Shown one piece after another: positions 23,956-50,726 of a stretch of 64,000 bases of DNA. The notes beneath the pieces are model-generated. The model searched no databases. It worked only from the letters and a program-made list of their open reading frames with translations, and had not been told where the DNA came from. Position numbers and translations under genes: made by a program. Position 1 is the stretch's first letter, and each line of letters begins with the position of its first letter. The DNA lies in assembly GCA_050253415.1 (NCBI GenBank), contig JBFWJC010000001.1, positions 712,679-776,678 on the forward strand, in the 5' to 3' direction. The DNA is from Pedobacter sp. (lineage in GTDB: Bacteria > Desulfobacterota > Desulfuromonadia > Desulfuromonadales > Syntrophotaleaceae).

Positions 23956-24703
23956 GTTCGGTTGCGATTTCCTCCACGCCGACATGGAAAACCTCCTTGA
24001 TGCGTTGTTCGGCAAATCCTTGTTCGGCCTTGCCGTGGTAATAGACGCTGCCCTGTTGCAGCAGGGTTACGGTGTCGCAGTAACGTCGCGCCAGGTCGAG
24101 ATCGTGGATACTGATGAGAATGGTTTTACCCGCATCGCGCAGGCTGGTCAGCAATTCCATGATTTCGAGCTTGTGCAGAATATCCAGGGCGCTGGTCGGC
24201 TCGTCGAGCAGAATGATCGGTGCTTCGGTGGCCAGCGCGCGCGCTAGACTGACCAACTGCGCCTCGCCGCCCGACAGTTCGTTGATAAGCCGGTTGCGGA
24301 AGATGTCGGTGCCGGTGACCACCAGGGCCTGGTCGATGATATCCATATCTTTCTGGCGCAGCCACTGCAGCCGTTTCAGGTGCGGATGGCGGCCCATGGC
24401 GACAAAGTCGGATACCATAATGGAAAAATCGAGGCGCGTGTCCTGCTGTACCAGGGTCACCATCTGGCTGAGAGATTTGCGGGGGATGCGGCGATAATCC
24501 CGCCCCTCGATCAAAACCCGGCCGTTTTGCGGTTCCCAGATGCGGCAGATGTTGCGCAGCAGCGTGCTCTTGCCGGAACCGTTGGGCCCGATCAGTCCAT
24601 GGATGCCCCCGGCGGCAAAGTGGCAGCTGATGTCTTTAAGAATAGCATGGCCACCGATGGAAAAATCGAGCTTGTCAATCTGCAGGATCGGTTGATCGGT
24701 CAT
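23927..24703 (-). CDS. BtuD/FecE-type ABC ATPase
   Basis: GPNGSGKS, LSGGE, LLDEPTSALD, IHDLDLA. Confidence 0.92.
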   Translation of the reverse strand: MTDQPILQIDKLDFSIGGHAILKDISCHFAAGGIHGLIGPNGSGKSTLLRNICRIWEPQNGRVLIEGRDYRRIPRKSLSQMVTLVQQDTRLDFSIMVSDFVAMGRHPHLKRLQWLRQKDMDIIDQALVVTGTDIFRNRLINELSGGEAQLVSLARALATEAPIILLDEPTSALDILHKLEIMELLTSLRDAGKTILISIHDLDLARRYCDTVTLLQQGSVYYHGKAEQGFAEQRIKEVFHVGVEEIATEHGVSLLFYR

Positions 24704-25521
24704 TCTTCCTCGTGTTCCCGGCTTTTAAGAGTCAGTTTCCAGGCCAGCGGCAAGCTGAATTTGGATACGGCGGTCAGCAGCGTGCCGCACAGCACGATGC
24801 TCCACATGATGCCGTGCCCCAGCCGGTCCTGAAACAGGCCGGTGGTTAAAGTCGTTCCCCATAACAGCGTCAACCCGGCGAATAACTGAATATTCTGGCT
24901 CATGGCATGAATGCCCCAGAAATTTTCGGAAATCCGGCTCAATCGGCCATTGCGCAATTTAATTTCAATGAGTTTAAACCAGATGCGTCCTTCCGCCACC
25001 TGGGCCGAGCCGTCGCAGATGTGATGCAACAGGTACAGGGCAATGAGGACATAACGTCCCGCAGCCATATCGCCGAACAGCCCGGTGAACAAGGGCGGGT
25101 AACACAGCAACAGCAATATCGCTCCCAGCGCCTGCCCACCACCCACCAGGGCCATGGCTCGCACCAGGCCTCGTACCTGGGTGTTGATATCCGGAAAGCT
25201 TTCCAGATAATCGACAAACGAAGAAACCTTGACGTTGCTGATAAACGTGATCCCCGGATAAAAGTATTTTGTCAGCACGCCAAGAATCGCCGCCACCCTG
25301 AATTCGGTCTGGGCCATGGAGAACATGGTGTAGAGCACCGCCCCTTCAAGAATGCTCTTGCCCAAAGTGTACAACAGGTTGCCGATCTCGCCATAGCGAT
25401 AATAAGGACTTAGCCCCATGGCCTGGAACCAGAGGGAAGTTTTATGCGCGACATCGCGCCACAGGGAGCGGGGTGCTGGGCGTGGATTGGCGATGGCAGT
25501 TTTCACGGCGGTCTCAGGCAT
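24700..25521 (-). CDS. Uncharacterised ~6-TM membrane protein, copy 1 (half-MFS-like)
   Basis: Hydrophobic ORF; close paralog at 55379-56206; ATGA overlap with the ABC ATPase. Confidence 0.8.
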   Translation of the reverse strand: MPETAVKTAIANPRPAPRSLWRDVAHKTSLWFQAMGLSPYYRYGEIGNLLYTLGKSILEGAVLYTMFSMAQTEFRVAAILGVLTKYFYPGITFISNVKVSSFVDYLESFPDINTQVRGLVRAMALVGGGQALGAILLLLCYPPLFTGLFGDMAAGRYVLIALYLLHHICDGSAQVAEGRIWFKLIEIKLRNGRLSRISENFWGIHAMSQNIQLFAGLTLLWGTTLTTGLFQDRLGHGIMWSIVLCGTLLTAVSKFSLPLAWKLTLKSREHEEE

Positions 25522-25691: not shown

Positions 25692-27959
25692 TTACATTTC
25701 CTTCAGCAGTTTAACCGTCTGGCGGGCTGCTTCAGCAGGAACCAGACCGGTATCGGAAATACCGGACAAAACCTTGGAAGAGTCGTGGTCGACAGTACCT
25801 GCTTTAGCCCAGGTGCTGGGAGCGACTTTGACCAGATAAGCGGAGAAGGCATGATGGCCGCTACCCGGGCGTTCGCCGATGAGATGAACAATGGCCTTAG
25901 GAGTGGTGCCAGCTTTGGTAAACAAAACTTCACCAGCTTTGTAGCCAGCGCGAACGCGGCCGCCGGTCACGACGATGTTTTTATCGGACAGGGTCAATCC
26001 GGCTTTTTTGCACTGTTTTTTCAGTTCGTTCAGGTAAGGCATCAGGTGCCCATCATCCATGATCGCCTTGGCGTTCAGACCGTCGGAGATGACAACCTGT
26101 ACGTCAGGGGCTTTGTTGCCCCAAGAGGCAGACAGTTTGCCCAGGGTGGCAACAGCCGCGTCGGACAACTCTTCACCGGTGCCCGGTGCGGAGATGTAGT
26201 TTTCGCGATCGTGAGCCTGAGATTTAATGCTCACGGCATTGGGGATGGAACCGATGAATTCAGGAGTGAACTCGGCCCACAGGCTGATTTTGGCGTCGTC
26301 ATACAGGTCGTGGATACGCTTGTTGGTGACAGGTTCCAGATCCCATACGTTTTCGCCATAGCCTACGGCCAGGTCGACACCGCGGCTGCGTACGTTTTTA
26401 ATGGATTGCTGGCCTTCAGCATAGATTTCCTTGAAGGAGCGGGTGTCACCTTTGGCCTGACGGAATTTGTAGTAAACCCAGGCAGGATCGCCAAAGTGCT
26501 TGGTCGGTTTGCCGTTGGCGTCGATGACTTCGATTTTTTTGTAGAAGTCCCACATGGCGTCGTTGACTTTAAAGCCGAATTTTTCGCGCAGGCGCACGTG
26601 GTCCTGGAAACCGGTGGTCAGGTAGCTGAGCATCGGGTCGTTACGGGTCGGCAGAGCCATCAGGTAGGCCGGGTTGGCCGGGGCGATCTGATCCTGGCAC
26701 CAGGCCAGGTCGTCGAGGGTTACAGGCATATGCAGGGTCGAGCAGATGTCGAGACCCAGCACCAGGCCGTGCAGTTTACCCATGACGATGTCTTCCAGAC
26801 AGGCGCGTACCAGCTGTTCGCGGGTTTTGAAGACCTCGGGACCGATGAAGCCGGCCACGTCGTTGACGTGCAGCCATACCTGATCCTCGGTGACGCCCTT
26901 GGCTTTGGCGATTTCCTGTTTCAGGGCGCGAGAGAACCCGTATTTACGGGACTCGTGGACGACCATGTCGAAGCCGTGGCCGTGACCGTTGGTGTAGTCG
27001 GCACCCTGGCCGGTTTCGAAATAGAGGCCGTAGGGACCCTTACGCATTTTTGCGTAGTCGATCATTTTCTGGATGGTCAGGTCGAAGGTCTTGTTGGCGC
27101 TTTCGGTACCGGCGAGGCTCTGGAACCAGATAGCGGTGGAGCCGGGCTTGGCTTCTTCCGCGGCAGCCTGACCGTCGATGTGGGACAAAACACACCAGGG
27201 GATGGTTTTTTCCAGGCCGAAAGCATCGACGATTTCTTTAAGACCTTCTTCGACGCGCAGGGTTGCTTCGAGTTGGCTGTCGACCGGGTTGGTACCGATG
27301 ACGATGTCACCGACGCCATAGGCGAAGCCATTAAGCGTCTGCATCTGAATGTCTTCTTTGTTGTCGGTCGGCGAGTTGGGCTGAATGCGGGCGCCGATGT
27401 AACCCTTAGCGCCGATTTTGGTGCCGGGCAGGGTGTTGAAAATCTTCTGGCCAATGCGGGTCAGTTCGGCGTTGGACATCAGTTTGACCACGGAACCGAT
27501 CACATCGCTGTGCAGACCGCCCATAATGGCTTTGATGTCTGCTTCGGGCTTGGTGAGCAGAAAGTTTTTCAGCTCGCCCATGGTCATGTTTTTGATTTTG
27601 TTGTATTTAGCCTTGTCGGTGGTTTGGCGGATCAGGGTGTCCTGGCCATCCACGAACAGCGAATGATCGTTGAGGTCCTTGATCTTGGTGTTGGCCAGCA
27701 ATTTGCGGGCGTTTTCGCGGTCCGCTTCGGTGTCTGCCGCTACCCCGAGGGCCTCGTCGCCTTCTTTAAAGGCATTGGCGGCGCCGATTACCTGCTGATA
27801 GGTGGTTTGGTCAAACTTCCCTTTGGTGCGATTGATGTACTGCATGACGTCTTCACCGGGCTTGACGCTGCCGATGGTGACGGCTCCGGCCATGCTGGCC
27901 AGAAAGGTCATTACCAGTGCGCCGGTAATGCCTGCCACGAATTTCCCCTTTTGTAACAT
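25692..27959 (-). CDS. eutBC: Fused ethanolamine ammonia-lyase large+small subunit with signal peptide, copy 1
   Basis: EutB motifs RIQPN, GDIVIGTNPV, LYFETGQG, VNDVAGFIGPE, DPMLSY; EutC motifs VVISDGL, GRVRAG, LIGERPG. ATG 27959 after GGAGG; N-terminus MLQKGKFVAGITGALVMTFLASMAGA. Confidence 0.92.
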   Translation of the reverse strand: MLQKGKFVAGITGALVMTFLASMAGAVTIGSVKPGEDVMQYINRTKGKFDQTTYQQVIGAANAFKEGDEALGVAADTEADRENARKLLANTKIKDLNDHSLFVDGQDTLIRQTTDKAKYNKIKNMTMGELKNFLLTKPEADIKAIMGGLHSDVIGSVVKLMSNAELTRIGQKIFNTLPGTKIGAKGYIGARIQPNSPTDNKEDIQMQTLNGFAYGVGDIVIGTNPVDSQLEATLRVEEGLKEIVDAFGLEKTIPWCVLSHIDGQAAAEEAKPGSTAIWFQSLAGTESANKTFDLTIQKMIDYAKMRKGPYGLYFETGQGADYTNGHGHGFDMVVHESRKYGFSRALKQEIAKAKGVTEDQVWLHVNDVAGFIGPEVFKTREQLVRACLEDIVMGKLHGLVLGLDICSTLHMPVTLDDLAWCQDQIAPANPAYLMALPTRNDPMLSYLTTGFQDHVRLREKFGFKVNDAMWDFYKKIEVIDANGKPTKHFGDPAWVYYKFRQAKGDTRSFKEIYAEGQQSIKNVRSRGVDLAVGYGENVWDLEPVTNKRIHDLYDDAKISLWAEFTPEFIGSIPNAVSIKSQAHDRENYISAPGTGEELSDAAVATLGKLSASWGNKAPDVQVVISDGLNAKAIMDDGHLMPYLNELKKQCKKAGLTLSDKNIVVTGGRVRAGYKAGEVLFTKAGTTPKAIVHLIGERPGSGHHAFSAYLVKVAPSTWAKAGTVDHDSSKVLSGISDTGLVPAEAARQTVKLLKEM

Positions 27960-28082: not shown

Positions 28083-29201
28083 TTACTTACGCAGCTGCTT
28101 TGCTGCTTCCCACATTTCGTTGAAGGCCTGCTCGGTCTCGTCGCTGAGAACTCGCCACAGGGCTACGGTTTTGAAGTAGGCTTCGTCGCCTACGTGGAAC
28201 ATAGCTTTTTCCTCGGCATTGAGGATGTCGCCGGTGTCGGCCATGACAGGTGAAACACCCTGAGATTTGACAACGTCAGCCTGGCGTGCGGGATCGAGGG
28301 AGAAGTTGATCCATTCTTCGGCCAGGGTTTTGGTCATGTCCTTGGCGCCGGCGCCCACATACCAAGCGTCGATCCAGGCTGTACCGCCTTCGGCAGGGGT
28401 TGCCAGGCGCCAGTTGCCGCCTTTAAGGTTGGCGGCCTGGGCGGCGAAACCCCAGGTGGTGGCCAGTGCCAGTTCGGGGAATTCATCCGGATTGGCGGCG
28501 CCGTCCCACAGGCTCTTGGCATTTTTGGCCAGATCGTTGAGTTTTTCCTGAACCTTGGCGCGGTCGAGCTTGTTGATGTCGAAGATATCTTCATAGCCGT
28601 AACCGAGCGCCAGAGCCGAGATCCAGACATTAACCTTGGGGAAGTTATTGTTGATGGTGTACTGACCGGCATACTGGGGTTCCCACAGTACGTTCCAGCT
28701 GGTCGGGGCTTGGGCTACCTTGTCGCGGTTATATGCCAGACCGTAGGGGCCGCAGTTGTAAGGCACTCCGTAGCGCACGCCGTTATAGAAAGGCGTCTGG
28801 TCGTTGCGGAATACTTCCATCATTTTGGCCAGGTTGGGGATGTTGTTCACATCCACGGGCTGCACGTATTGCTGGCCTTCCTGGTAGGAGAAGAAACGCG
28901 GGATCTTGGGCAGTTCGATCGGCGGAGAGATCAAATCCGCGGTGTTGTCTTTGACGGCCTGGAAGAATTCGTCCTGGTCGGTCGGGTTGAAAATCTCGAC
29001 ATTGACATCGACGTTGTATTTGTCTTTGACCAGTTTCTGGAAATCCTCTACGTAGGGTTTGGCATAGCCGCCCCAGCAGGTAATGCGCAATGTTTCTTTT
29101 TGGGTCTCTGCCTTTTTGGTGCAGGCGGGGGTCAACAACAGGGCGCCTGCGGCCACTACGGCTGCGGTTGCGGAAACGGCTCCCCACAAAGTTTTCTTCA
29201 T
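28083..29201 (-). CDS. PotD/PotF-like solute-binding lipoprotein, copy 1
   Basis: Lipobox-like TPAC, LRITCWGGY, YGLAYNRD, PTSWNVLW, PAEGGTAWID, AEEWINF. Confidence 0.85.
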   Translation of the reverse strand: MKKTLWGAVSATAAVVAAGALLLTPACTKKAETQKETLRITCWGGYAKPYVEDFQKLVKDKYNVDVNVEIFNPTDQDEFFQAVKDNTADLISPPIELPKIPRFFSYQEGQQYVQPVDVNNIPNLAKMMEVFRNDQTPFYNGVRYGVPYNCGPYGLAYNRDKVAQAPTSWNVLWEPQYAGQYTINNNFPKVNVWISALALGYGYEDIFDINKLDRAKVQEKLNDLAKNAKSLWDGAANPDEFPELALATTWGFAAQAANLKGGNWRLATPAEGGTAWIDAWYVGAGAKDMTKTLAEEWINFSLDPARQADVVKSQGVSPVMADTGDILNAEEKAMFHVGDEAYFKTVALWRVLSDETEQAFNEMWEAAKQLRK

Positions 29202-29371: not shown

Positions 29372-30109
29372 TTAGAAAGTAAAGGTCAGGTTAAGGGCCG
29401 CGGCCGATTCGGTGTCGATGAGCTCCTTGGCAGCGCTGCTGATCGGCGACGAGAAGATGACGATCGGGCTGAGGGTCAGCTGGTCGGTCAGGGCGTAATC
29501 AAGGCTGGCGCTCAGTTCGTAGTTATGCCATCCGGAGTAGTCGGCTACGGTGCCATCGGCATGCTGGTTGTAAGAAACCAGGGCGCCGAGATTCAAAGTA
29601 GTGTTGGGGACCCACTGGGTAAGGTCGAAGCTGTGGCTGACGTCAAAGCTGAAGAACAGGCCGTCTTCTTCGGCGCGGTCCCAGTCGTAAGAGATTTTCA
29701 GGTTCGGCGAAAGAAGGGTGTTGAGGGTGACGGTCGCGAACAGTTCGTTGGTGTCTTCCCCTTCGATCATGTACCAGATATCTCCGATCGATACGGAAAT
29801 AAGATCATTCACATCAAAGGCATAGGTCAGGATGACGTCGGTTTCGTTGAGCTCGCCAGCTTTCCAGTTGTCGCCACTGGTCAGCTGCCAGTTGTGCCAG
29901 GTGCTGAGGGTGAAACCGCCGCCGAGGGTCAGGTCCATGCCTGCCTGGATGGTCGGGCGGGAGTCACTCAGGTTAAATCCACGCCACATGTACTTGTCCC
30001 AGATGCCGGCGTAGGCATCGCCTTCAACTTCAATGGACGCCTGGGCCTGGCCGATAAAGCCGGCAGTCATCATAAAGACGGCGAGTAACAACACACTCCA
30101 CTTTTTCAT
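29372..30109 (-). CDS. Outer-membrane beta-barrel / putative porin (TorF-like), copy 1
   Basis: Signal peptide AQA, DKYMWRG, alternating beta strands, C-terminal LTFTF. Confidence 0.8.
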   Translation of the reverse strand: MKKWSVLLLAVFMMTAGFIGQAQASIEVEGDAYAGIWDKYMWRGFNLSDSRPTIQAGMDLTLGGGFTLSTWHNWQLTSGDNWKAGELNETDVILTYAFDVNDLISVSIGDIWYMIEGEDTNELFATVTLNTLLSPNLKISYDWDRAEEDGLFFSFDVSHSFDLTQWVPNTTLNLGALVSYNQHADGTVADYSGWHNYELSASLDYALTDQLTLSPIVIFSSPISSAAKELIDTESAAALNLTFTF

Positions 30110-30703: not shown

Positions 30704-31480
30704 TTACAGGGTCGGGATCGAGAGTACCTCGGCCAGTGCCTGGAGCAACGCCGGAAGATCCTGGAAGCGCGGGCCCGTACCGGAGACATCGGGTCGGCGC
30801 ACCGCGATAACAAGACATTGTTCCATCTGTGCCGCAAGCAGTTTATCCGGAACCCCGCCGGCCTTGCCACTGTCCTTGGTGACCAGAACGCCGATGTGGT
30901 GCTGGCGGATGTGCAAACGATTGCTGTCGACGGAAAACGGTCCCTTCCCCCAGATGATTTCATCGGGGGTCAGACCGGCCTGTTCCACGGCGTGGCGCGA
31001 TTCGGCATGGGGCAGCACCCGGGCCCGCAAGCGGGTGCCGGTCAGGCGTGCTTGTGCCACATAGGGTGCCAGGTGACGCGAACCGGTGGTCAGCAGCACC
31101 GGACGGCCGTCCGCGCAGGCCAGCGCGGCGGCGTGTTCGTGATCTTCGGCCCAGGTGACCGGATAATCGTTGAAATCGGAGGATGGCCGTTCCCAGCGCA
31201 GATAGGGCAGGTCGAGGGCTGCTGCGGCCTGTTGCGCCTGGGTCTGGGCCTGGCTGGCGTATGGATGCGCGGCATCGATGAGAACCCGTACCCCCCACTG
31301 GCGCATCACGTCCGCCATGGCCGTCGCATCGAGACGGCCATGACGGCGCTGCAGGCGCGGATGTTCCGGCAGTGCCAACGGTGCGTCCGTCGCCGTCGAC
31401 ACCAGCACCGGGTGGCCGGTTTCCAGCAGGGCGCTGGCCAGCGGGGCCGTTTCGCTGGTACCTCCGAGCAGCAAAATCAT
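30704..31480 (-). CDS. cbiJ: Cobalt-precorrin-6A reductase
   Basis: LLGGTSE, IDAAHPYA, LLTTGS, GPFS, LVTKDSG. Confidence 0.92.
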   Translation of the reverse strand: MILLLGGTSETAPLASALLETGHPVLVSTATDAPLALPEHPRLQRRHGRLDATAMADVMRQWGVRVLIDAAHPYASQAQTQAQQAAAALDLPYLRWERPSSDFNDYPVTWAEDHEHAAALACADGRPVLLTTGSRHLAPYVAQARLTGTRLRARVLPHAESRHAVEQAGLTPDEIIWGKGPFSVDSNRLHIRQHHIGVLVTKDSGKAGGVPDKLLAAQMEQCLVIAVRRPDVSGTGPRFQDLPALLQALAEVLSIPTL

Positions 31481-32193
31481 AATCGGTAGCCTCGTGGCGT
31501 GATCATCCAGCCGCCCAGTTGAAGAGAAGTACTGTTGCCGATGATGACCGTGCTGCGCATGCCGACGTCGGCTTTCAGCAACTGGCCGAGGGTGGTTAAT
31601 TCGATGCGTTCGTCAGCTTCGCCGATGGCGGTGACAATACCGACCGGCGTAGCGTCGTTGCGGTGGAATTGCATGATTTCGACGGCTTCTTCCAGTTGCA
31701 TAATGCGCTTTTTGCTGCGCGGATTGTACAGCGCAACCACCAGGTCGGCTTCGGCCAGTGCCGTCAGACGGCTGCGGATGGCATCCCAGGGAACCAGCAG
31801 ATCGCTCAGACTGATGCAGGCATAGTCAAGCATCAGCGGGGCGCCGAGGCGCGCCGCCGCCGAATTGGCGGCCGAGATGCCGGGCACGATTTCGATAGGC
31901 ACCTCAAAACCTTCGGCAGCCGCCATCTCCAGGGCCAGACCGGCCATGCCATAGACGCCGGGATCACCCGACGATACCAATGCCACCACGGCCCCCTGTG
32001 CCGCACGTTGCAGCGCCGCCCGGCAACGCTCGGTCTCCTGCATCATGCCCGAAGCGATAAGCTCCTTGCCAGCGGTCAGATCGGCAATGTGGGCCAGATA
32101 CAGGTCGTAGCCTGCGACCACCTGGCTGTCGGCTATGGCCTGCTCGGCGCGGCGGGTGCGATCGAGGCGGTTACCGGGTCCGATGCCGACCAC
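31477..32193 (-). CDS. cbiH: Cobalt-precorrin-3B C17-methyltransferase
   Basis: VGIGPG, VSSGDPGVYGMAG, ISLSDLLVPW, LYNPRS, MITPRGY. Confidence 0.93.
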   Translation of the reverse strand: MVGIGPGNRLDRTRRAEQAIADSQVVAGYDLYLAHIADLTAGKELIASGMMQETERCRAALQRAAQGAVVALVSSGDPGVYGMAGLALEMAAAEGFEVPIEIVPGISAANSAAARLGAPLMLDYACISLSDLLVPWDAIRSRLTALAEADLVVALYNPRSKKRIMQLEEAVEIMQFHRNDATPVGIVTAIGEADERIELTTLGQLLKADVGMRSTVIIGNSTSLQLGGWMITPRGYRL

Positions 32194-32963
32194 GAACAGT
32201 TTTCCCGGGCTATGGCGATGGTGACACTCTTGATGATGGTTTTCGGTAGTATTAATTGGGTCCTCCTTCCTGCCAGCAGGGCGGCCGGTTCGGCCACCGC
32301 CGGCAAGGCGACTTTATCTTCAACAAAAGTGGAATGAGCAAACAAACGGCCGCTGGCGCGGATTTCGGCACCGGAGATCAGCCGCAAAGGAATATCGAGT
32401 CGTTCGGCAGCCTCCAGCAGTCCCGCTTCGTCGGCCTTGAGGTCGGCCGACGCCAGCAGACGTACCTCTTGGGGGCGGTGCCCGACCTGGGCCAGCCCTT
32501 CTGTCACCGCGGCGACAATGGTCTCGGCCGGGGTGCCGCGCCGGCAACCGACACCGACGATGAGATTCTTGGCCGCTTCCGAGGTGGTGGTGATGACCGG
32601 TTCCGCCTCAAGAATGTTGGCGATGCGCAGGGTCAGAGGGTTGGCGCCGCCTTCGTGACCGCACAGCAGGCTGATGGCCCAGCGTCCCAACACATCGACC
32701 ACCACCACTGCCGGATCCTTGAGTTTGTGTTCGACCAGTGGGGCAATGGCCCGAACTACCACGCCGCTTGGCATGATATAGACCAATCCGCGGCAGCGTC
32801 CGAACAGATCGCGGGTGAGATCGGCGACTTTGCTAAACCGGTGGATCTCCGTTGCCCCTTCGACCGAGTCATGCACATAGATCTCGACGTCGCAAAAATG
32901 CGGAGCCAGACTGCGGGCAACGTTCAACCCTTCGGCGGACAGAGAGATCAGCGCGATGCTCAT
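32133..32963 (-). CDS. cbiG: Cobalt-precorrin-5A hydrolase
   Basis: GVVVRAIAP, DPAVVVVD, SLLCGHEGGAN, VITTTS, GVGCRRG, VAEPAAL; ATG 32963. Confidence 0.92.
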   Translation of the reverse strand: MSIALISLSAEGLNVARSLAPHFCDVEIYVHDSVEGATEIHRFSKVADLTRDLFGRCRGLVYIMPSGVVVRAIAPLVEHKLKDPAVVVVDVLGRWAISLLCGHEGGANPLTLRIANILEAEPVITTTSEAAKNLIVGVGCRRGTPAETIVAAVTEGLAQVGHRPQEVRLLASADLKADEAGLLEAAERLDIPLRLISGAEIRASGRLFAHSTFVEDKVALPAVAEPAALLAGRRTQLILPKTIIKSVTIAIARENCSWSASDPVTASIAPAAPSRP

Positions 32964-33718
32964 GACGAACGGCCCTGGCGGTATTCGTGGGTAAACGCAG
33001 CGTCGTACAGTTTGGAGACCGGAATATCCCGCGACAACGCCCAGCCCACCACAATCATGGCCGTCTTGGTAATCCCGGCGGTGTCCGCCTGGGCGCCGAT
33101 ATCCGCCAGCGTGCCGCGCAGCACCAGTTGATCGGGCCAGGAGGCGTGATAGACCACCGCTACCGGGCACTGGCCGCCATAGGGTTCGGCCAGGGTTTTC
33201 GCGACCTCGCCGATTTTGTGAGCCGACAAAAAGATGCACAGGGTGGCGTTGCTTTTGGCCAGTTTCAACAGGTCCTGGTCTTCCGGCATCGGGGTACGCC
33301 CTGCGGTGCGGGTCAAAATGATGGTCTGGGAAATCTCCGGCGCGGTGAGTTCGGTACACAGCGCAGCCGCTGCAGCCTGAAACGAACTTACCCCCGGCAC
33401 CACTTCGTAGCCGATGCCGAACCTGTCGAGTTCGTTCATCTGCTCGCGGATCGCGCCGTAAATGGATGGATCGCCGGAGTGCAGTCGGACCACGTCCAGG
33501 TCACGCTGCTGGGCGGCCTGAAACATCACGGTGATTTCGTCCAGACTCATAAGCGCCGAGTCGTAGCGCTCGGCATCGGCGGGCAGGTGATCGAGTACCG
33601 CGGGGTTGATCAGCGAGCCGGCATAGATGCAGATCGGGCAGTTGCTCAGCAGGCGTTTTGCCTTGAGGGTGAGGAGTTCTGGGTCGCCGGGGCCGGCGCC
33701 GATAAAATAGACTTTCAT
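32960..33718 (-). CDS. cbiF: Cobalt-precorrin-4 C11-methyltransferase
   Basis: MKVYFIGAGPGDPELLT, YAGSL, RLHSGDPSIYGAIREQ, ASWPD, SKLYD. Confidence 0.95.
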   Translation of the reverse strand: MKVYFIGAGPGDPELLTLKAKRLLSNCPICIYAGSLINPAVLDHLPADAERYDSALMSLDEITVMFQAAQQRDLDVVRLHSGDPSIYGAIREQMNELDRFGIGYEVVPGVSSFQAAAAALCTELTAPEISQTIILTRTAGRTPMPEDQDLLKLAKSNATLCIFLSAHKIGEVAKTLAEPYGGQCPVAVVYHASWPDQLVLRGTLADIGAQADTAGITKTAMIVVGWALSRDIPVSKLYDAAFTHEYRQGRSS

Positions 33719-33809
33719 ATAGTTTATCTCCTTGCAGGGATGTGTGATCGAATACCGAGTACCGATAGCTGTAGGCTTTATGCTGTAAGCTGAGTTCAAA
33801 ATCTGCTAC

Positions 33810-34338
33810 TTCAAGTTCGCCGGTCCCGGCCGGCAGCCGGGATACTTTCTTTGCAAGGCCCCAAAGAAAGTATCCAAAGAAATGGCCTTGGCGTGCGCCT
33901 ACCCCACTGGTGCGAAGAGGAGATGGCTTTGCGAACCGGCCATGCGATCCCGGAACAACACGTCTGCGGGCGCTCCACTTGCCACCAGGGGCGGTCCGCC
34001 ACCGGTGAAGGAGGATCTATTCAACACCGGCGCTGCGGGTAAAGGCACACCGACAACCCGGCATTAAAGATTTGGGAGCAGGTTTTGTCTATGCTTTTCA
34101 CCCAATAGCACCTTGACGCCAGCCTCGCAAGGGGAGCAACGTCCATCTCTGGCAAGTAATTCGCGCAAGAGAAACAGTTCCAAGAAACCAGCGGGATGAC
34201 CAATCGGTGCCACCGTTGTGAAATCCGCTGTCCTTCGCGACAACATCGCCCCCCGCAGGGGAAAGCCATTTTTTGCTTACTTTTTGTTGGCGTGAAAAAA
34301 AGTAAGGCGCCGGGCGGGGGCGCCACCCCGCGGTCTTG
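33810..34338 (-). repeat. Structured intergenic repeat element, type A (full copy)
   Basis: Shares both ends (CAAGACCGCGGGG... and ...CCGGCTGCCGGCCGGGACCGGCGAACTTGAA) and the interior with the other type A copies. Confidence 0.9.
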
Positions 34339-34377
34339 AAGTCCGGGCGAGTACCGTGTGCTGCGAAAACAAATACT

Positions 34378-35022
34378 TCACCCTTCCAACACTTCCGGTC
34401 GCACCAACAGCACCACCGTGCGGGGACTGGCCTCTAACCCGGCCAAATCGTCAGCCATGACTTCCGTTACCCTTTCTTCGGGCAGGGTAAGCTCCTCGCA
34501 CACCAGAATGCGGCGCGGTGCCAGTTGCGCGGCCAATGCGCCGATCCAGCGCAGGGCGGTGGACGATCCCGCCAACACGGCGATCTTGTCCGCCGGTGCG
34601 AAATCCTGAATATCGTTGTCCGGCAGGGCACCGTGGGCACTGAGGATGCGCGCATCCATCCAGTCGAGTCCGGCGGCGGCGAAGGCGGCCTGTACGGAAC
34701 TGACCGCGGGGATGATACGGCACAGGGCGCGGCCGAAATGGCGCACCACCGGGCGGGCCAGGCTGTGCAGCCCGGGGTCGCCGGTGACCAGCACCACCAT
34801 GGGCGTCTTTCCGATACGGCTGTCCATCTCGTTCAGGGCGGCCGCGATATCGGCTCCGACGGCAATCCGTTCGGCTTTCGCATCCGGGAAAAGCTCCAGC
34901 AAACGGCTCGCCCCGATCAAAAGCTCCGCCTGGTCCACGGCATGCCGGGCTGCATCGGTAAGATAGGCGAGGCCGCCGGGGCCGCAGCCGACGATAGTGA
35001 TGGGCCTGTCTGTTACTGCCAT
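34378..35022 (-). CDS. cbiE: Cobalt-precorrin-7 C5-methyltransferase (stand-alone CbiE)
   Basis: IVGCGPG, LVTGDPG, IPAVSSVQAAFA, LSAHG, EELTLPEER; ATG 35022; no fused CbiT domain. Confidence 0.88.
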   Translation of the reverse strand: MAVTDRPITIVGCGPGGLAYLTDAARHAVDQAELLIGASRLLELFPDAKAERIAVGADIAAALNEMDSRIGKTPMVVLVTGDPGLHSLARPVVRHFGRALCRIIPAVSSVQAAFAAAGLDWMDARILSAHGALPDNDIQDFAPADKIAVLAGSSTALRWIGALAAQLAPRRILVCEELTLPEERVTEVMADDLAGLEASPRTVVLLVRPEVLEG

Positions 35023-36065
35023 GGGGTCAGATCTCCACTGAAGCCAAGCTGGTCGCCGGCCAGGTTGATGAGTACCGTGGTTACCGGTGCATGATAATTG
35101 AGTCGGTGGCTGATCGCGATCTGTATGGCACGCGCCAGGGCATCGCCGAGGCATCTGCGGTGTTCGGGGGAAAGTTCGGCAAACACCCCTTCCACCGTGG
35201 TTGCTTCGGCTACCGGATGTTCTAGTACTCGGCTGGCAAGTTTCCTTACAGAGAGGACCGGACTGATCGAGCGGCTTGAATGGGTATCCCAGTGACCCAT
35301 GGGCAACTTGGCCAATTTCCCCGGATGCCCCAGTACCAGCAACCCGTCGATGGGCCTGTGGGTCACCAGGTCGATCATGGTGCCCCATTCGTTTCCCGCT
35401 TCCACGACCTGCTCGGCGGTCAACTGAAAATGTCGGCGTGCGGCCCGTTCGCCGATATGTCCCGGCACCAGCACCGGATGGCGCACGCCGGCGGCCATGG
35501 CAACATTGTAGGCGCACTCCATGGTCTTGCGGACCGCCTCAAGGCTGAACGGACGCACCCTGCCGGTGGTGCCGAGCACCGAGATTCCGCCGACGATGCC
35601 GAGGCGGGGATTGAAGGTGCGTGCCGCCAACTCTTCGCCGGTTGGAATGGCGACAGTAATGCGCAGACCGCGTTCGGTCACTTCGCGCACGGCCGCTTCG
35701 ATCATGCGGCGAGGACCTGGATTGATGGCCGCTTCGCCGGGGGGCAGGGCCAAGCCCGGTTTGGTGACGATGCCGACTCCTTTGCCGGCGCAGAACCGTA
35801 GCTCCCCATCCATCCATGAAAGGCGTGAGATGACAAGGGCGCCGTCGGTGACATCGGGATCGTCCCCGGCATTTTTGCAGACGGCCGCCTCGGCGCCGTC
35901 AGGCAGGGCGCGGACATACGCCAGCGGTAACGATTCCCGTGATCCGTCCGGTAAGGGAATGGAGACCGCCTCACCGACTGGAAATCCGCACAGCAGGCAG
36001 GCTGCAGCTTTGGCCGCCGCCGCCGCGCAGGCGCCGGTGGTAAATCCTCCCTGCAAACCGCCCAT
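35013..36065 (-). CDS. cbiD: Cobalt-precorrin-5B C1-methyltransferase
   Basis: GFTTGACAAAAAKAA, KNAGDDPDVTDG, AINPGPR, TFNPRLGIVGGISVLGTTG, GHPGKLAK. Confidence 0.95.
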   Translation of the reverse strand: MGGLQGGFTTGACAAAAAKAAACLLCGFPVGEAVSIPLPDGSRESLPLAYVRALPDGAEAAVCKNAGDDPDVTDGALVISRLSWMDGELRFCAGKGVGIVTKPGLALPPGEAAINPGPRRMIEAAVREVTERGLRITVAIPTGEELAARTFNPRLGIVGGISVLGTTGRVRPFSLEAVRKTMECAYNVAMAAGVRHPVLVPGHIGERAARRHFQLTAEQVVEAGNEWGTMIDLVTHRPIDGLLVLGHPGKLAKLPMGHWDTHSSRSISPVLSVRKLASRVLEHPVAEATTVEGVFAELSPEHRRCLGDALARAIQIAISHRLNYHAPVTTVLINLAGDQLGFSGDLTPWQ

Positions 36066-36067
36066 GG

Positions 36068-36838
36068 TCAGGCAACCTCCTCGGAAGCGGGATTCTGTTC
36101 CCAGGAGCGGCTCCCAACACGGACGATAACTGTCGACATGTAGCCATGACTGTCGTCGGTAAGAGCCTCGCGGAAATTGCGGAAGATGGCCTCGCGGCCG
36201 TTTTGTTCCACATAGCAGGCCAGTCGGGCCTGATCGAGTAACCGGTGTTCTTCCAGGAGTACAGCCAGTTGCCGCAAGCGTGGTCCGACTTTGTAAAGGA
36301 CCAGTGTTTCGCAATGTTTAAGGGCATGAGCAATGGCCACCATATCGGTGGCGGGCATCATGGTCAGGCGGTCTTCCTGCAGGGTCAGCGGTTCGACCAG
36401 CAGGGCCGCGGTTGCCTGGAAGGCACTGATGCCGGGTACGACATGGATGTGTCCGGACGGCAGCAGGTCGGTCAGACTTTCGATCAGGTAGGAACTGGTG
36501 CTGTAGATCATCGGGTCACCGATGGTGACCTGCACCACGGACAAGCCGGCGCTGACTCGCGTCGCCACTTCTGCCGCCACTTCCGCCCAGCAGGCCCGCG
36601 TCTGGGCCGAGTCGCGTTTCATCGGGTAAACGTGTTCGATAACTTCCTGCTCGCCGATCAGATCGCGGATGGTGACCAGGGCCAGGCTTTCGCCGGCCAG
36701 TTCCGAGCGCGGCACGATCACCGTGTCGGCGGATTGGATAAGATTCGCGGCTCGCAGGGTGATCAGGTCGGGGGATCCGGGGCCGACTCCGACGGCGTAG
36801 AAGTGGCCGGGTTGACAGTTTTTTAGTTTTATATTCAT
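36068..36838 (-). CDS. cbiL: Cobalt-precorrin-2 C20-methyltransferase
   Basis: GVGPGSPDLITLRA, YPM, TIGDPMIYST, VLYK, YMSTVIV. Confidence 0.92.
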   Translation of the reverse strand: MNIKLKNCQPGHFYAVGVGPGSPDLITLRAANLIQSADTVIVPRSELAGESLALVTIRDLIGEQEVIEHVYPMKRDSAQTRACWAEVAAEVATRVSAGLSVVQVTIGDPMIYSTSSYLIESLTDLLPSGHIHVVPGISAFQATAALLVEPLTLQEDRLTMMPATDMVAIAHALKHCETLVLYKVGPRLRQLAVLLEEHRLLDQARLACYVEQNGREAIFRNFREALTDDSHGYMSTVIVRVGSRSWEQNPASEEVA

Positions 36839-36938
36839 GGACTTACTCCTTGGAAAGGTGTTCGGCGAGCGGTGATATGTCATCCGAAACCTGAAATTCT
36901 TGCATTAATCTTTGAACTTCACTTCAAACTATCAACTA

Positions 36939-37530
36939 CAAGACCGCGGGGTTGCGCCCCCGCCCGGCGCCTTACTTTTTGTCCAAGCCAACAAAAAGTA
37001 AGCAAAAAATGGCTTTCCCCTGCGGGGGGCAATGTGGTCGCGAAAAGTGGCGGATCCCAAAACGATGGCGTCAACCCATCGTGCCACTGGTTTCTTGGTA
37101 CTGTTTCTTTTACGCAGGTTACTGAATCAAGAGGACAGTTGCTCCTCTTGCGAAACGGGCAGCAAGGTGTTGTTGAGTGAAAAGCTTAAGCAAAACCTGA
37201 ACCCAAATCTTTGCAGAGCCGGATCTCGGTGTGCCTTTACCCGCAGCGACGGTGTTGAAAAGATCCTCCTTCACCGGTGGTAAATCACCTCTGGTGGCAA
37301 GTGGAGCGCCCGCAGACGCGCCATTCCTGGATCGCAGCGAGTGTGCGTTGAGCCTGATTCCTCCGCGCCAGTGGTGTCGGCGCAGCCAAGGCCATTTCTT
37401 TGGATACTTTCTTTGGGGCCTTGCAAAGAAAGTATCCCGGCTGCCGGCCGGGACCGGCGAACTTGAAGTTAAGGTTTCAAGACTTCCGACAACCAAACAC
37501 CAACTTCAACACCGCGGGGTCGCGTCTCCC
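36939..37530 (+). repeat. Type A repeat (full copy to ~37467) plus linker and the start of a second copy
   Basis: Same sequence as the other type A copies, opposite orientation to 33810-34338. Confidence 0.9.
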
Positions 37531-37536
37531 TAGCCT

Positions 37537-38733
37537 CTACCAGACCACGATCATCACCCAAGTACAGAACAGCACGAAACAAACCCTTAACACCTGCGCA
37601 CTGACAGCCATCACCAGGCCGGGTCGTGCGCCGAGGGTGGCCAGGTAGGTGGGCAGGGCGTGGCGCAGGGTACGAATCGGGGCGGTGATGACCGAACCGA
37701 GCAGGATCACGGTGACGGCCTGTTTGATGGACAGGCTGCCGGCATCGACGAAGTTGGCTGCCGCGATGGCGCCGTTATACATATTGACCGCCTGGGCCGG
37801 GATAATGGCTACCGCCTGCGGTGGCAAGAAAGCGGGTTTGAACACACTGGGCAGCCACACCGCCAGGTATTCGAAAACCTTGCATTGTTCCAGCAGCGCC
37901 ATGGCCGCGAAGGTCGGTACCACGTACAGCAGCAGGCGCCGGATGGTGCGCCGGGATCGCTTCCATACCCGTTTCCAGAAATCCACACTGGCAAAAGCCG
38001 GTCGTTGCAGTGTTTTGCCGTTATCGGCAACGGCCTGGCCAGGGACATTGAAACCGGCCCGGTCTTCATTCCACCGCTGGCTGAGCCAGCTGGAAACCAT
38101 CAGCACCAGCACGATTTCCAGGCCGATGGCGGCCAGTCTTACCCCGAACAGGGCACCGGTAGCCATCCAGCCGAAAGCGAAACCCAGTGGCACGATAAAG
38201 GTCGGCAGATGGGCAAACAGCGAGATGCAGGACACCACCAGTACGGAGGTATAGAGATGGCGGTTGTTAATAACCCCCTCGTCGCGGTACGAGACCAGCA
38301 TGCTGTTGGCTACCGCACCCGATTGAAAGGCCATGATAAAGGCCGGAGCTGCCGCGCGGGGCAGGCGTCCCAGTCGGATCAGCGGCCAGGCCAGCACCGA
38401 TAAAGCACTTATCCAGCCAGCCACCTCCAGAATCTGACCGATGAGGATACCTGCGGCAATGATAAAGCCCAGTTCCACCAGCAATACCGCTTTTTGCGGC
38501 CAGAAAGGGAGTTTGCGTTTCCAGCTGCTGTAGGCGGAAGGCCGGGATCTTTCTTGGCGGCGTGCCTGCTCCAGAGCGCGGCCCCGTTCCCCTTCGGCCC
38601 GGATTTTGCCAGGTTTTGACGTAGCGACTTCGGTGGTGGCTGAATGTTCCATGGCTGCAACAGGACAGACGTGTCCCATTGATCCCAACCCGAGAGTCAG
38701 CAAGACCAGCAGCAATAGCAGGGTGCGTCGCAT
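37537..38733 (-). CDS. Nucleoside-recognition (Gate) domain membrane protein; possible cobalt/corrinoid transporter
   Basis: Multi-TM; PLIRLGRLP..AAPAFIMAFQSGAVANSML and FAHLP motifs; located inside the cob operon. Confidence 0.7.
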   Translation of the reverse strand: MRRTLLLLLVLLTLGLGSMGHVCPVAAMEHSATTEVATSKPGKIRAEGERGRALEQARRQERSRPSAYSSWKRKLPFWPQKAVLLVELGFIIAAGILIGQILEVAGWISALSVLAWPLIRLGRLPRAAAPAFIMAFQSGAVANSMLVSYRDEGVINNRHLYTSVLVVSCISLFAHLPTFIVPLGFAFGWMATGALFGVRLAAIGLEIVLVLMVSSWLSQRWNEDRAGFNVPGQAVADNGKTLQRPAFASVDFWKRVWKRSRRTIRRLLLYVVPTFAAMALLEQCKVFEYLAVWLPSVFKPAFLPPQAVAIIPAQAVNMYNGAIAAANFVDAGSLSIKQAVTVILLGSVITAPIRTLRHALPTYLATLGARPGLVMAVSAQVLRVCFVLFCTWVMIVVW

Positions 38734-38737
38734 ACGT

Positions 38738-39613
38738 TTATCCTTCTGCTGCCTGGAGGGCGGTCATAGCGGCATCAAGGTGACGGAAGAAGATGTCGCG
38801 GATGCCGGCGTTGTAGCCGAGCGGCCGGGAACAGGTCGCTTCAGGGGCGCCAATCAGGCTTTTCCACGAATCGGGTTCGTCACCCAGGACATCGTTCTCG
38901 ATGTGATCGCCGGCTACCAGCATCAACGGCACGAAATGCACCGCCCCCGCTTTTGCGGCATGTTCCCGCGCCCAGGGCAATTTGGCCAGGCCGGGTTTTC
39001 CTTCCACGCTGCAGATGACGGCGTTGTCGCATTGCGATTCGACGGTAGCGGCAAAGTCCAGTAACGCCTGATTGTAGCGGGAGTATTTGCTGTTGCCGTG
39101 GGTGACGAACACCGTCGGACGGTCCGAAGCGATGTCTTCGCTTACCGCGGCAGCTACGGCACGGATATCTTCAGGCGTTGCCATCAGCGGTTGCCCGTAA
39201 GATACTTTCACGCTGCCGGTCGGGACCTGGGCTATTTCCGCATCCTTTTCACCGGGCACGATCATCAGCGATTGCAGTACGGCCTGACGATAGCCCTGGG
39301 CCTGAAGTTCTGCGAGGGTTTCTGGCAGGTTACGCACCTGGACCCCGCGTGTGTGCAGCCGATCCACAACGGTCTGGGAGGTGAAAGCCAGGAAGATGTC
39401 ATGGTCTGGATAGCGTTCCTGCGCTGCCTGCTCGATGACGTCGAACACTTCCCGACCTTTGTCCGAAGTGGTACCGAAGGCGACCAGCACGATGGCCGGT
39501 GTTGTTTGGCTCATGATTGCATCCTTCCCAACAGCAGTGCCGGACTCTTTCGCCGCACAGCCGGGCAGGGCAAAAAGCAGCAGGCATGCGATGAATCTGG
39601 ATAGAAGGGTCAT
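38738..39613 (-). CDS. cbiK: Sirohydrochlorin cobaltochelatase CbiK with lipoprotein signal
   Basis: AIVLVAFGTT, AFTSQ, IVPGE, THGN, VEG, PLMLVAGDHIEND, PLG; lipobox LPGC. Confidence 0.88.
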   Translation of the reverse strand: MTLLSRFIACLLLFALPGCAAKESGTAVGKDAIMSQTTPAIVLVAFGTTSDKGREVFDVIEQAAQERYPDHDIFLAFTSQTVVDRLHTRGVQVRNLPETLAELQAQGYRQAVLQSLMIVPGEKDAEIAQVPTGSVKVSYGQPLMATPEDIRAVAAAVSEDIASDRPTVFVTHGNSKYSRYNQALLDFAATVESQCDNAVICSVEGKPGLAKLPWAREHAAKAGAVHFVPLMLVAGDHIENDVLGDEPDSWKSLIGAPEATCSRPLGYNAGIRDIFFRHLDAAMTALQAAEG

Positions 39614-39694
39614 TGATGTTCTCTCCTAAATGGGCTGACCAGTTTTCAAAACCTTAATTTCAAGTCCACATTCCGGTTTTGGCCTTAGATGTGG

Positions 39695-40828
39695 TTTGGC
39701 TTATGTTTTTCACTCAACAACACCGTGCTGCCCGTTTCGCAAGAGGAACAACGGTCCTCTTGATTCAGTAATCCGCGTAAGAGAAACAGTCCCAAGAAAC
39801 CAGTGGCACGTTGGGTCGACGCCATCGTCGTGGAATCCGCCACTTTTCGCGACCCCATTGCCCCCCGCAGGGGAAAGCCATTTTTTGCTTACTTTTTGTT
39901 GGCTTGGACAAAAAGTAAGGCGCCGGGCGGGGGCGCGACCCCGCGGTCCTGAAGTCAGGGTTGCGTAGCGTGTTCCGAGTGCTGAGTTCAAAAGCTTACA
40001 ATCCTAAAGTCAAGTTCGCCGGTCCCGGCCGGCAGCCGGAATACTTTCTTTGCAAGGCCCCAAAGAAAGTACCCAAAGAAATGGCCTTGGCTGCGCCGAC
40101 ACCACTGGCGCGGAGGAATCAGGCTCAACGCACACTCGCTGCGATCCAGGAATGGCGCGTCTGCGGGCGCTCCACTTGCCACCAGAGGCGATTTGCCACC
40201 GGTGAAGGAGGATCTTTTCAACACCGTCGCTGCGGGTAAAGCAACACTGACATCCGGTTCCGCTAAAAAAAATTGGGTTGAGGTTTGGCTTATGCTTTTC
40301 ACTCAACAACACCGTGCTGCCCTTTTCGCAAGAGGAGCAACGGTCCTCTTGATTCAGTAATCCGCGTAAGAGAAACAGTCCCAAGAAACCAGTGGCACGA
40401 TGAGTCGACGCCATCGTTGTGGAATCCGCCACTTTTCGCGACCACATTGCCCCCCGCAGGGGAAAGCCATTTTTTGCTTACTTTTTGTTGGCTTGGACAA
40501 AAAGTAAGGCGCCGGGCGGGGGCGCGACCCCGCGGTCCTGAAGTCAGGGTTGCGTAGCGTGTTCCGAGTGCTGAGTTCAAAAGCTTACAATCCTAAACTC
40601 AAGTTCGCCGGTCCCGGCCGGCAGCCGGGATACTTTCTTTGCAAGGCCCCAAAGAAAGTATCCAAAGAAATGGCCTTGGCTGCGTCGACACCACTGGCGC
40701 GAAGGAATCAGGCTCAACGCACACTCACTATGATACTGAAATCGGGCGTCTGCGGACGCTCCATTTGCCACCATAGGCGGTTCGCTACCGGTGAAGGAGG
40801 ATCTTTTCAACACCGTCGCTGCTGGGTA
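39695..40828 (-). repeat. Tandem type A repeats, 589-bp period (half + full + half copy)
   Basis: 39696 matches 40285 and 40010 matches 40599; the linker between copies is near-identical. Confidence 0.9.
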
Positions 40829-40915
40829 GTCAAAACCGACAGCTCGGTTTTGCATTAGCGTCGACGCGATTTCCGTTACGGAGGGCCGATGCCTCAGCCC
40901 TCCGTATCTAGCTGC

Positions 40916-42331: not shown

Positions 42332-42413
42332 GCAGTATCTCCTCAAATAGCGATATGGTTATCGGTTCCGCACTCATATTCGGCGGTCTTATACCTGGAT
42401 TGATTTTTAGGGT

Positions 42414-42437
42414 GCGGAGCGCTCGGGAGCGCTCCGC
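42414..42437. other. GC-rich hairpin between the peptide gene and the radical SAM gene
   Basis: GCGGAGCGCTC-GG-GAGCGCTCCGC perfect inverted repeat. Confidence 0.75.
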
Positions 42438-42484
42438 GGGGTTTCGTTTTTATGCGAGAAAAGGGTAGTTTCTCGCATGAAAAC

Positions 42485-42586
42485 TTAGTTGGTCTTCTTG
42501 TCCATCAAGATGTAATGGGAAAGACCGGTGCCGCTCGCCGTGCAGGATTTGCGGTAGGCGATGACTTCCTTGCGCTGTTGCTTCAT
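42485..42586 (-). CDS. cbpA: 33-aa RiPP-like precursor peptide (CbpA-like) MKQQRKEVIAYRKSCTASGTGLSHYILMDKKTN
   Basis: Below the ORF-track cutoff. Very strong RBS AAGGAGGT, ATG 42586, TAA 42485; directly upstream of the SPASM radical SAM gene. Confidence 0.88.
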   Translation of the reverse strand: MKQQRKEVIAYRKSCTASGTGLSHYILMDKKTN

Positions 42587-42706
42587 GCAATCACCTCCTT
42601 TCTTTTTGGATGGTGGAACAAAGCTCATCCCATCTGGCTGCGACGGATGTTGTTATGTTTTGATTCCCAACTAGCAACTTCGAAATATTCTTTATCTCTT
42701 TACTTC

Positions 42707-43412: not shown

Positions 43413-43440
43413 ACTCAACGGCAAAGACGGAGAGTCAAAT

Positions 43441-45494: not shown

Positions 45495-45496
45495 AG

Positions 45497-46027: not shown

Positions 46028-46078
46028 TGTCGGTAAACTCTCGTATTTTTATGACTGTGATTTATGGTCTTTTCTTCC

Positions 46079-46184: not shown

Positions 46185-46225
46185 TAAAAGAGACCAGTAG
46201 CTTAAAGTCAGGGATGTGTCTCCCC

Positions 46226-49776: not shown

Positions 49777-49817
49777 GGTTTTATCCTTTTTATAGTTTCA
49801 ATCTGCTCTATCAACTA

Positions 49818-50716: not shown

Positions 50717-50726
50717 GTCAAGGTTC

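Follow-up and report, generated by a model that had tools for sequence, protein, structure and literature searches.

Ethanolamine ammonia-lyase (EAL, EC 4.3.1.7) is the textbook enzyme that is enclosed in a microcompartment to contain acetaldehyde, and the characterised EALs are two-subunit proteins, either cytoplasmic or encapsulated. The present analysis concerns two genes, eutBC-A and eutBC-B, in which EutB and EutC are fused into one chain that begins with a putative export signal. Both lie in a stretch of 64,000 nucleotides from Pedobacter sp. (contig JBFWJC010000001.1, positions 712,679 to 776,678), which as a whole is called the window here. The orthologous system is that of Pelobacter (Syntrophotalea) carbinolicus DSM 2380, with eutBC1 and eutBC2 (Pcar_0491 and Pcar_0467; Aklujkar et al. 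2012, PMC3543383), and eutBC-B is 92% identical to P0023 of this strain over 696 tree columns. In the parts of that paper available to us, an 'unusual fusion', a duplication, cob genes between the two copies and the lack of eutA are described; flanking binding proteins and 'multitransmembrane' proteins are proposed to serve uptake; a corrinoid-type ABC transporter, VWA proteins and an ATPase are listed at the locus; and P. carbinolicus strains are reported to grow on ethanolamine. The same parts treat EutBC as an ordinary catabolic lyase and mention no signal peptide on it, the three occurrences of 'signal peptide' all concerning other proteins. An earlier note on this DNA, made from the sequence alone, had supposed that the locus might already be noted in Pelobacter; as far as these parts of the paper go, this proves true of the fusion, of the duplication and of the absence of eutA, and does not hold for the signal peptide.

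A literature search for an exported or periplasmic EAL returned nothing beyond PMC3543383; most subscription journals lay outside this search, so that absence is not proof. Schmidt 2014 (PMC4275255) does not mention ethanolamine, and we found no paper that reports an export signal on EutBC. We assign a probability of about 0.68 to the reading that EutBC is a competent adenosylcobalamin (AdoCbl)-type EAL which is exported by Sec, resides in the periplasm and binds its cofactor there, and that a downstream block encoding a membrane protein (mTM), BtuD, BtuF, BtuC and MoxR is the best candidate for cofactor supply. Sequence comparison gives good support to the view that the window encodes a known enzyme in a fused form that would be exported. 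The two genes are as follows.

25692..27959, minus strand: eutBC-A, fused EutB-EutC, 755 amino acids (aa); predicted signal peptide residues 1-26, coding 27882-27959
56359..58620, minus strand: eutBC-B, paralogue, 753 aa, 71% identity to eutBC-A; predicted signal peptide residues 1-26, coding 58543-58620

The coordinates 25692-27959 given for eutBC-A in the earlier note stand; the gene is on the minus strand, and a plus-strand reading was dropped because its translation is not EutB. The start codon of eutBC-A is the ATG at 27959, 7 nt downstream of a GGAGG, and that of eutBC-B is an ATG 6 nt downstream of a GGAGG. Pfam places both domains in the single 755-aa open reading frame (ORF) of eutBC-A, as had been read from the motifs: EutB (PF06751) at residues 53-487 (E 3.4e-146, 487.9 bits, cut-off 25) and EutC (PF05985) at residues 553-755 (E 2.3e-33, 115.9 bits, cut-off 25.8). 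With NCBIfam, the EutB half scored 645.9 bits against NF011649, above the cut-off of 554, and the EutC half scored 92 bits against the equivalog NF003971, below the cut-off of 230. These two are the only EutB genes of the genome, which measures 4.1 Mb and is 100% complete. Two contigs from metatranscriptome libraries, X12 (27955-28105) and X18 (27870-28047), span the start-codon region of eutBC-A with one differing letter each; contigs from such RNA libraries are no proof of transcription and show no 5' ends.

Catalytic competence was judged from residues and fold. We take R160, Q162, N193, E287, D362 and M392 of E. coli EutB to be the substrate-site residues, a list that reportedly goes back to Shibata 2010 and Mori 2014. 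When aligned to E. coli EutB (3abo_A), a check that had been proposed beforehand, all six were identical. Conservation in the clade was read from an alignment of 126 rows, built with 119 relatives of at least 700 aa (from the best 120 listed), both window copies and seven more distant members: R160, E287 and D362 are kept in 126/126 rows, Q162 and N193 in 125/126 and M392 in 120/126. The role of Glu287 in EAL is treated in PMC8473560 and PMC4413051. The AlphaFold2 (AF2) model of eutBC-A reached pLDDT 91.4 and pTM 0.88, with residues 1-30 forming a lone helix at a pLDDT of only ~62. Foldseek superimposed this model on 3abo_A with TMt 0.89 and rmsd 2.3, at 31% identity to EutB, and on 3abo_B (EutC) with TMt 0.72. 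Both copies thus look like catalytically competent, single-chain AdoCbl-type EALs, and they would presumably act on ethanolamine.

The N-terminus of eutBC-A reads MLQKGKFVAGITGALVMTFLASMAGA followed by VTIGS, and that of eutBC-B reads MQLNAKLLYGITFGLALTFVASLAGA followed by VAIRD; neither contains RR. With the predicted cleavage site marked by a slash, the leaders are laid out as MLQKGK-FVAGITGALVMTFL-ASMAGA/V (eutBC-A) and MQLNAK-...-SLAGA/V (eutBC-B), that is, a basic n-region, a hydrophobic h-region and small residues at -3 and -1. The basic-hydrophobic-AGA leader without a twin arginine, which the earlier note had written for both paralogues, was therefore recovered as described. Its further statement, that the signal architecture persists while the sequence drifts, was borne out by the 119 aligned rows with a complete N-terminus. 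Ala occupies position -1 in 117/119, one of A, V, G, S and C stands at -3 in 118/119, and K or R occurs in the n-region of 118/119; the pre-sequence is 23-27 residues long in 102/119, and an uncharged stretch of 18-24 residues, whose sequence varies freely, is present in nearly all. Immediately after the leader comes a conserved mature start, V/I-T/A/S-I...PGEDVF, as part of a conserved extension of ~25 residues at the mature N-terminus, while the hydrophobic core is free to vary. Because the n-h-c architecture is kept while the core drifts, the leader is evidently translated. The pattern at -1, -3 and in the n-region is, by comparison of the leaders, the signature of a cleaved Sec signal.

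The RR motif was found in only 3 of the 119 complete N-termini (P0015, P0036 and P0133). The window's genome has two TatC genes, yet the window leaders lack RR, and they are therefore naturally read as sending an unfolded chain out through Sec. An alternative is that the leader is an uncleaved signal anchor, so that the lyase would face the periplasm but stay anchored in the inner membrane, possibly next to mTM and BtuCD. An uncharged stretch of this length could span a membrane, and three relatives with both a twin-arginine (Tat) signal and a lipobox (P0133, L073 and L075) are predicted to be membrane-tethered. But the near-invariant Ala at -1 and small residue at -3, with the conserved mature start next to them, are the pattern expected of signal peptidase I, and we regard the anchor as unlikely.

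Support of another kind came from relatives at 52-62% identity, which carry canonical Tat signals instead of Sec signals, some with a lipobox in addition. In a sample of 401 genomes of the window's phylum, Tat leaders were found in L051 (IPRRAFLAMMGAAG, motif PRRAFL), L057 (LSRRDFFGIMGAAG, SRRDFF), L052 (MSRRKFCGILAG, SRRKFC) and both L026 and L027 (MSRREFCCALAG, SRREFC). Among the 50%-identity representatives, a Tat-type leader is present in P0133 (RRRSFLGAL...TSGC, Tat plus lipobox), P0129 (TRREFI), P0143 and P0137, and P0123 has SRKEFL with a lipobox. The 22 metagenome loci of the clade (L061-L082) include 11 with an RR or RK motif, five of the Sec type and three whose N-terminus lies off the contig; L065 and L079 appear to have no signal. 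In L069 (2748-5018) the leader is Tat-like, MTSR*SFLRGFAG, with an in-frame stop at the place of the second Arg. A Tat signal has no role except export and none in the cytoplasm, and for this reason the Tat-type relatives are the strongest support for an extracytoplasmic EutBC. Since Tat signals occur in other members of the same clade, it is well supported by these leaders that the whole EutBC clade is export-tagged, the two signal-less metagenome loci notwithstanding. The export claim of the earlier note is thus strengthened by the clade-wide architecture and by the Tat signals of the relatives; export and cleavage themselves are deduced from these patterns.

A quick IQ-TREE analysis of 46 rows, with the leader columns removed, placed all signal-bearing rows in one clade (SH-aLRT 100). 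Tat-type rows are basal, and a subclade of 28 rows (support 98) is mostly of the Sec type, with the Tat-type L051 and L057 nested inside it; the starred branches force at least two changes between Sec and Tat. Just outside the exported clade branch three fused EutBC proteins without a signal (P0140, P0148 and L054). The deep branching order carries limited weight, given long branches and a quick search.

The same data bear on the view that EutBC is cytoplasmic, with the leader acting as a cytoplasm-facing tether or a microcompartment-type helix, or with translation starting downstream. It agrees with the location of all characterised EALs, and Met codons do occur at residues 17, 23 and 38. Against it stand the canonical Tat signals in the clade, the positive N-terminal charges in 118/119 rows, the strong ribosome-binding site that each copy has 6-7 nt ahead of its upstream ATG, the n-h-c architecture that is kept despite sequence drift and so points to a translated leader, and a genome without shell genes. 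We consider a cytoplasmic EutBC very improbable.

The absence of shell genes extends what had been noted in the window. Of the ~56 window ORFs scanned with Pfam or NCBIfam, none was assigned to EutA, EutT or a shell protein, in agreement with the earlier note. In the whole genome, neither the microcompartment shell domain (PF00936) nor EutH (PF04346) had any match, and EutA (PF06277) gave only one weak match of 45 residues at 29 bits, so that no convincing EutA was found. The phrase 'without a microcompartment' in the earlier note is consequently upheld at genome scale. A microcompartment targeting helix as the role of the leader was ruled out by the lack of shell genes in the genome together with the Tat signals in relatives.

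The genes around eutBC form two modules, each consisting of a TorF/Gcw_chp putative porin, a PotD-like lipoprotein, eutBC and mTM. Module A continues with BtuD, BtuF-like and BtuC genes and then with MoxR, DUF58 and VWA proteins.

29372..30109, minus strand: TorF/Gcw_chp putative outer-membrane porin A, with a Sec signal
28083..29201, minus strand: SBP-A, PotD/YdcS-like solute-binding protein (SBP) of the SBP_bac_6 family, lipoprotein-like leader, no cognate permease nearby
24700..25521, minus strand: mTM-A, 273-aa membrane protein of no Pfam/NCBIfam family; its stop overlaps the btuD start
23927-24703, minus strand: BtuD-like ATPase
22882-24015, minus strand: BtuF-like periplasmic binding protein, leader MAFRCC...GGAC
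21843-22898, minus strand: BtuC-like permease
20765-21871, minus strand: MoxR AAA+ protein
19874-20737, minus strand: DUF58 protein
18041-19843, minus strand: 600-aa ORF (orf600)
16902-18203, minus strand: first VWA protein
16007-16807, minus strand: 266-aa ORF
14975-15997, minus strand: second VWA protein
59990..60901, minus strand: TorF/Gcw_chp putative porin B, 86% identity to porin A; start probably at ORF residue 59 (~60727)
58738..59931, minus strand: SBP-B, 75% identity to SBP-A; start probably Met at residue 29 of the ORF
55379..56206, minus strand: mTM-B, 275 aa, 64% identity to mTM-A, downstream of eutBC-B

The gene order eutBC-mTM-btuD-btuF-btuC is also seen in two close relatives (L004 and L005), in eight loci of other families (L040, L043, L044, L045, L046, L047, L049, where the contig end cuts, and L050) and in four metagenome loci (L061, which is cut, L062, L063 and L074). 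MoxR-DUF58-orf600 follow downstream of btuC in L044, L045, L046, L047, L050 and L062; in L043 only MoxR-DUF58 matched after btuC, and L063 is cut within MoxR. An apparent fusion of mTM with BtuD in L045 was discarded, as a TGA at 10492-10494 ends mTM and btuD runs from the next codon.

The distribution of mTM was followed with a profile built from 11 sequences, which matched in 16 of the 401 genomes. It was present in 14 of the 15 Sec-type EutBC genomes of the sample, the exception being G390; when G401, a Sec-type genome without mTM that was reached via L007, is added, the figure becomes 14/16. None of the five Tat-type genomes has mTM. The EutBC copies of G289 look broken, and two genomes with mTM (G273 and G374) gave no EutBC match, both being fragmented and of the same genus as four EutBC genomes. 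Metagenome loci behave alike: mTM is in 0/6 Tat-type loci (with at least 1.5 kb downstream) and in 4/5 Sec-type loci, L080 being the exception. By family, Sec signal and mTM go with f1, f40, f50, f65 and f101, versus f63, f67 and f100 for the Tat type; these are few lineages, and much of the pattern may go back to common descent of a single block. The tracking of the Sec type by mTM is suggestive on these counts, and the usual presence of the mTM-BtuD-BtuF-BtuC-MoxR-DUF58 block after Sec-type and not after Tat-type genes fits cofactor loading outside the cytoplasm, though it is no proof. The step in the earlier note by which the enzyme must take up AdoCbl outside the cytoplasm thereby gains indirect support. 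The link of this block to the Sec type is what is new here.

No match to mTM was found in Pfam, NCBIfam or the ESM Atlas. Its AF2 model (pLDDT 82, pTM 0.79) shows about six long helices. A Foldseek search of the model against the PDB returned nothing at E<=0.001. In a wide VIA search the top 50 rows were all major facilitator superfamily (MFS) transporters, aligned over one six-helix half with Z 10.5-17.4, where a Z of ~13 can be reached by helical bundles without kinship; the best match was 9jbs_A (Z 17.4, rmsd 3.6, 213 residues aligned). Prediction of a two-copy complex gave 0.68, compared with 0.06 for the best of three controls; in calibration, 20 of 30 solved homo-pairs and 1 of 23 single chains attained this mark, counts that apply only approximately here because a custom alignment was supplied. 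Contacts agreed by at least 88% between dimer prediction runs, with a partner pLDDT of 83, and the predicted interface, S95-E107 and N200-L213, coincides with invariant residues. A homodimeric, half-MFS-like transporter is a reasonable reading of these models, which speak for pairing short of demonstrating it.

Taken together, the pathway that we favour may run as follows. A Sec signal peptide would take EutBC across the inner membrane, with probable cleavage after AGA. Because a Sec substrate crosses the membrane unfolded, EutBC would reach its folded, assembled and cobamide-bound state only in the periplasm. Ethanolamine might enter by the TorF-type porin, possibly aided by the PotD-like lipoprotein. 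The cleavage of this substrate to ammonium and acetaldehyde would take place outside the cytoplasm, and the acetaldehyde may diffuse inward to a cytoplasmic aldehyde:ferredoxin oxidoreductase (AOR) and related enzymes. The half-MFS-like mTM dimer, BtuD-BtuF-BtuC and MoxR/DUF58/VWA are the best candidates for cofactor supply or recycling, in place of EutA and a microcompartment. Periplasmic cofactor loading and the roles of mTM and BtuDFC are here deduced from gene content and leader type.

These last roles can be drawn more sharply. The block might be a dedicated periplasmic system for AdoCbl insertion and recycling that serves the Sec-type EutBC, a B12 counterpart of Ccm, which is the system for c-type cytochromes. 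The mTM homodimer would then export the AdoCbl that CobA and the products of the neighbouring cob genes supply, BtuF-BtuCD would take the place of EutA by recapturing used cobalamin, which would be adenosylated again in the cytoplasm, and MoxR/DUF58/VWA would help loading; lineages that kept Tat would insert the cofactor while the enzyme is still in the cytoplasm and could do without the block. We put this forward tentatively, as a possible but rather doubtful proposal.

Several points weigh against the favoured reading of a periplasmic AdoCbl enzyme. We know of no AdoCbl enzyme shown to work outside the cytoplasm; ATP, which reactivation or adenosylation would require, is absent from the periplasm; BtuCD-F systems are importers; and no AdoCbl exporter was identified. 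The EutC half is, on its family scores, a divergent EutC. One metagenome homologue at 56% identity (L065, 1752-4007) has the apparent start MNIQKTNRDFDQ, seems to lack any signal and stands directly after a pyruvate kinase gene. As the Sec-type G390, G401 and L080 lack it, mTM is not strictly required, and its association with Sec could reflect shared descent of one block and not function (five versus three families). Lastly, localisation, cleavage and activity of EutBC are all read from sequence comparison.

The surroundings of module A offer a hint on the fate of the product. Further downstream, a molybdenum cofactor (Moco) riboswitch precedes AOR and a cobalamin riboswitch precedes BtuB and TonB, and the two modules flank a cobalamin synthesis cluster that includes the CobA adenosyltransferase.

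12855-14588, minus strand: aldehyde:ferredoxin oxidoreductase (AOR)
14622-14740, minus strand: Moco riboswitch before AOR
9204-10166, minus strand: TonB
10194-12128, minus strand: BtuB-type B12 outer-membrane receptor
12268-12447, minus strand: cobalamin riboswitch before btuB
30704..55266, minus strand: cobalamin biosynthesis cluster between the modules
45497-46027, minus strand: CobA/BtuR adenosyltransferase, within the cobalamin cluster
55083-55266, minus strand: cobalamin riboswitch

AOR adjoins eutBC in ten other loci (L039, L042, L044, L046, L047, L048, L049, L058, L066 and L082), and in the Tat-type locus L051 acetate kinase (Ack) and phosphotransacetylase (Pta) genes lie upstream of eutBC. 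These neighbours point to acetaldehyde as the product of EutBC, and AOR is likely to be its consumer. The Moco/tungsten riboswitch ahead of AOR would place such an acetaldehyde consumer under pterin-cofactor control.

The same neighbourhood can be read otherwise. EutBC might be exported without serving ethanolamine catabolism, acting instead on another vicinal amino alcohol or on an ethanolamine compound that cannot be transported, or functioning mainly as a periplasmic corrinoid binder. The two paralogues are only 71% identical, the EutC half is divergent, the PotD-like SBP is an orphan without an assigned ligand, and the genes sit in a cluster for B12 synthesis and uptake beside BtuB, BtuFCD-like genes and riboswitches. 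On the other hand, the six substrate-site residues are conserved in the two paralogues and in almost the whole clade, AOR, Ack and Pta stand beside the gene in many loci, and P. carbinolicus strains grow on ethanolamine according to PMC3543383. Hence we judge a role apart from ethanolamine to be quite unlikely.

Control of the porin-SBP-eutBC modules by a riboswitch was considered and set aside: in an Rfam scan at gathering thresholds, btuB and the cysG-cob operon alone were preceded by cobalamin riboswitches, and none lay directly before either module. A second FecCD-type permease is encoded elsewhere in the genome and leaves the specialisation of the eut-linked set undecided.

Some further features of the window were recorded. 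The porin paralogues are 86% identical, versus 71% for EutBC, 75% for the SBPs and 64% for mTM, a difference that might stem from gene conversion or from a later duplication of just the porin gene. A 154-aa ORF without a family (30106-30570, minus strand) lies immediately upstream of the porin A gene and is kept in L004 (93%) and weakly in L005 (30%). The genes downstream of btuC (14975-21871, minus strand: MoxR, DUF58, the 600-aa ORF, two VWA proteins and the 266-aa ORF) form a Bat-like, chaperone-like set beside the corrinoid transporter. Within the cobalamin cluster, a radical SAM/SPASM enzyme (40916-42346, minus strand) matches NCBIfam TIGR04163 (peptide-modifying CbpB, 'cobopep') at 790 bits, and just upstream of module B is a B12-binding radical SAM protein with DUF4080 (61133-62890, minus strand). 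A complete Mla lipid-transport operon (MlaE, F, D, A and C) occupies 4831-8571 on the plus strand. The left end of the window cuts an ammonium transporter gene (2-502, minus strand); in P. carbinolicus, a third porin paralogue adjoins an ammonium transporter, according to PMC3543383.

If the favoured reading of a Sec-exported, periplasmic EutBC is true, the exporting clade, which is widespread, would represent a second and unrecognised solution to acetaldehyde containment, and energy-poor fermenters would be spared the cost of substrate uptake and ammonium export. EutBC would also be the first AdoCbl radical enzyme outside the cytoplasm, as far as literature searches show, and would raise a concrete question, namely how AdoCbl is delivered and renewed in a compartment without ATP. 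The contrast of Sec and Tat within one clade and the block that tracks Sec provide genetic handles (mTM, btuDFC and moxR), and a cultured, sequenced carrier of orthologous genes exists in Syntrophotalea carbinolica DSM 2380.

Compared with EutB/EutC of E. coli, Salmonella and Listeria (3ABO, 2QEZ), the window EutBC has the same two domains, the same fold and the same substrate-site residues, and it probably performs the same chemistry. It differs in being one fused chain of ~755 aa, whose first 26 residues form a putative export signal followed by a mature extension of ~25 residues, and the genome, unlike those eut systems, has no EutH, no shell proteins and no convincing EutA. The signal-less P0140, P0148 and L054 are likewise single-chain EutB-EutC proteins, but they are 36-40% identical and carry no N-terminal signal or extension; they show that fusion preceded export or was independent of it. 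Reductive dehalogenases are Tat-exported corrinoid enzymes that work outside the cytoplasm. The Tat-type EutBC relatives would, like them, fold and load the cofactor inside and then be exported. Reductive dehalogenases are unlike EutBC in having a different fold and no adenosyl radical, and the window EutBC departs from them further in its Sec-type signal, which implies that the cofactor would be loaded after export.

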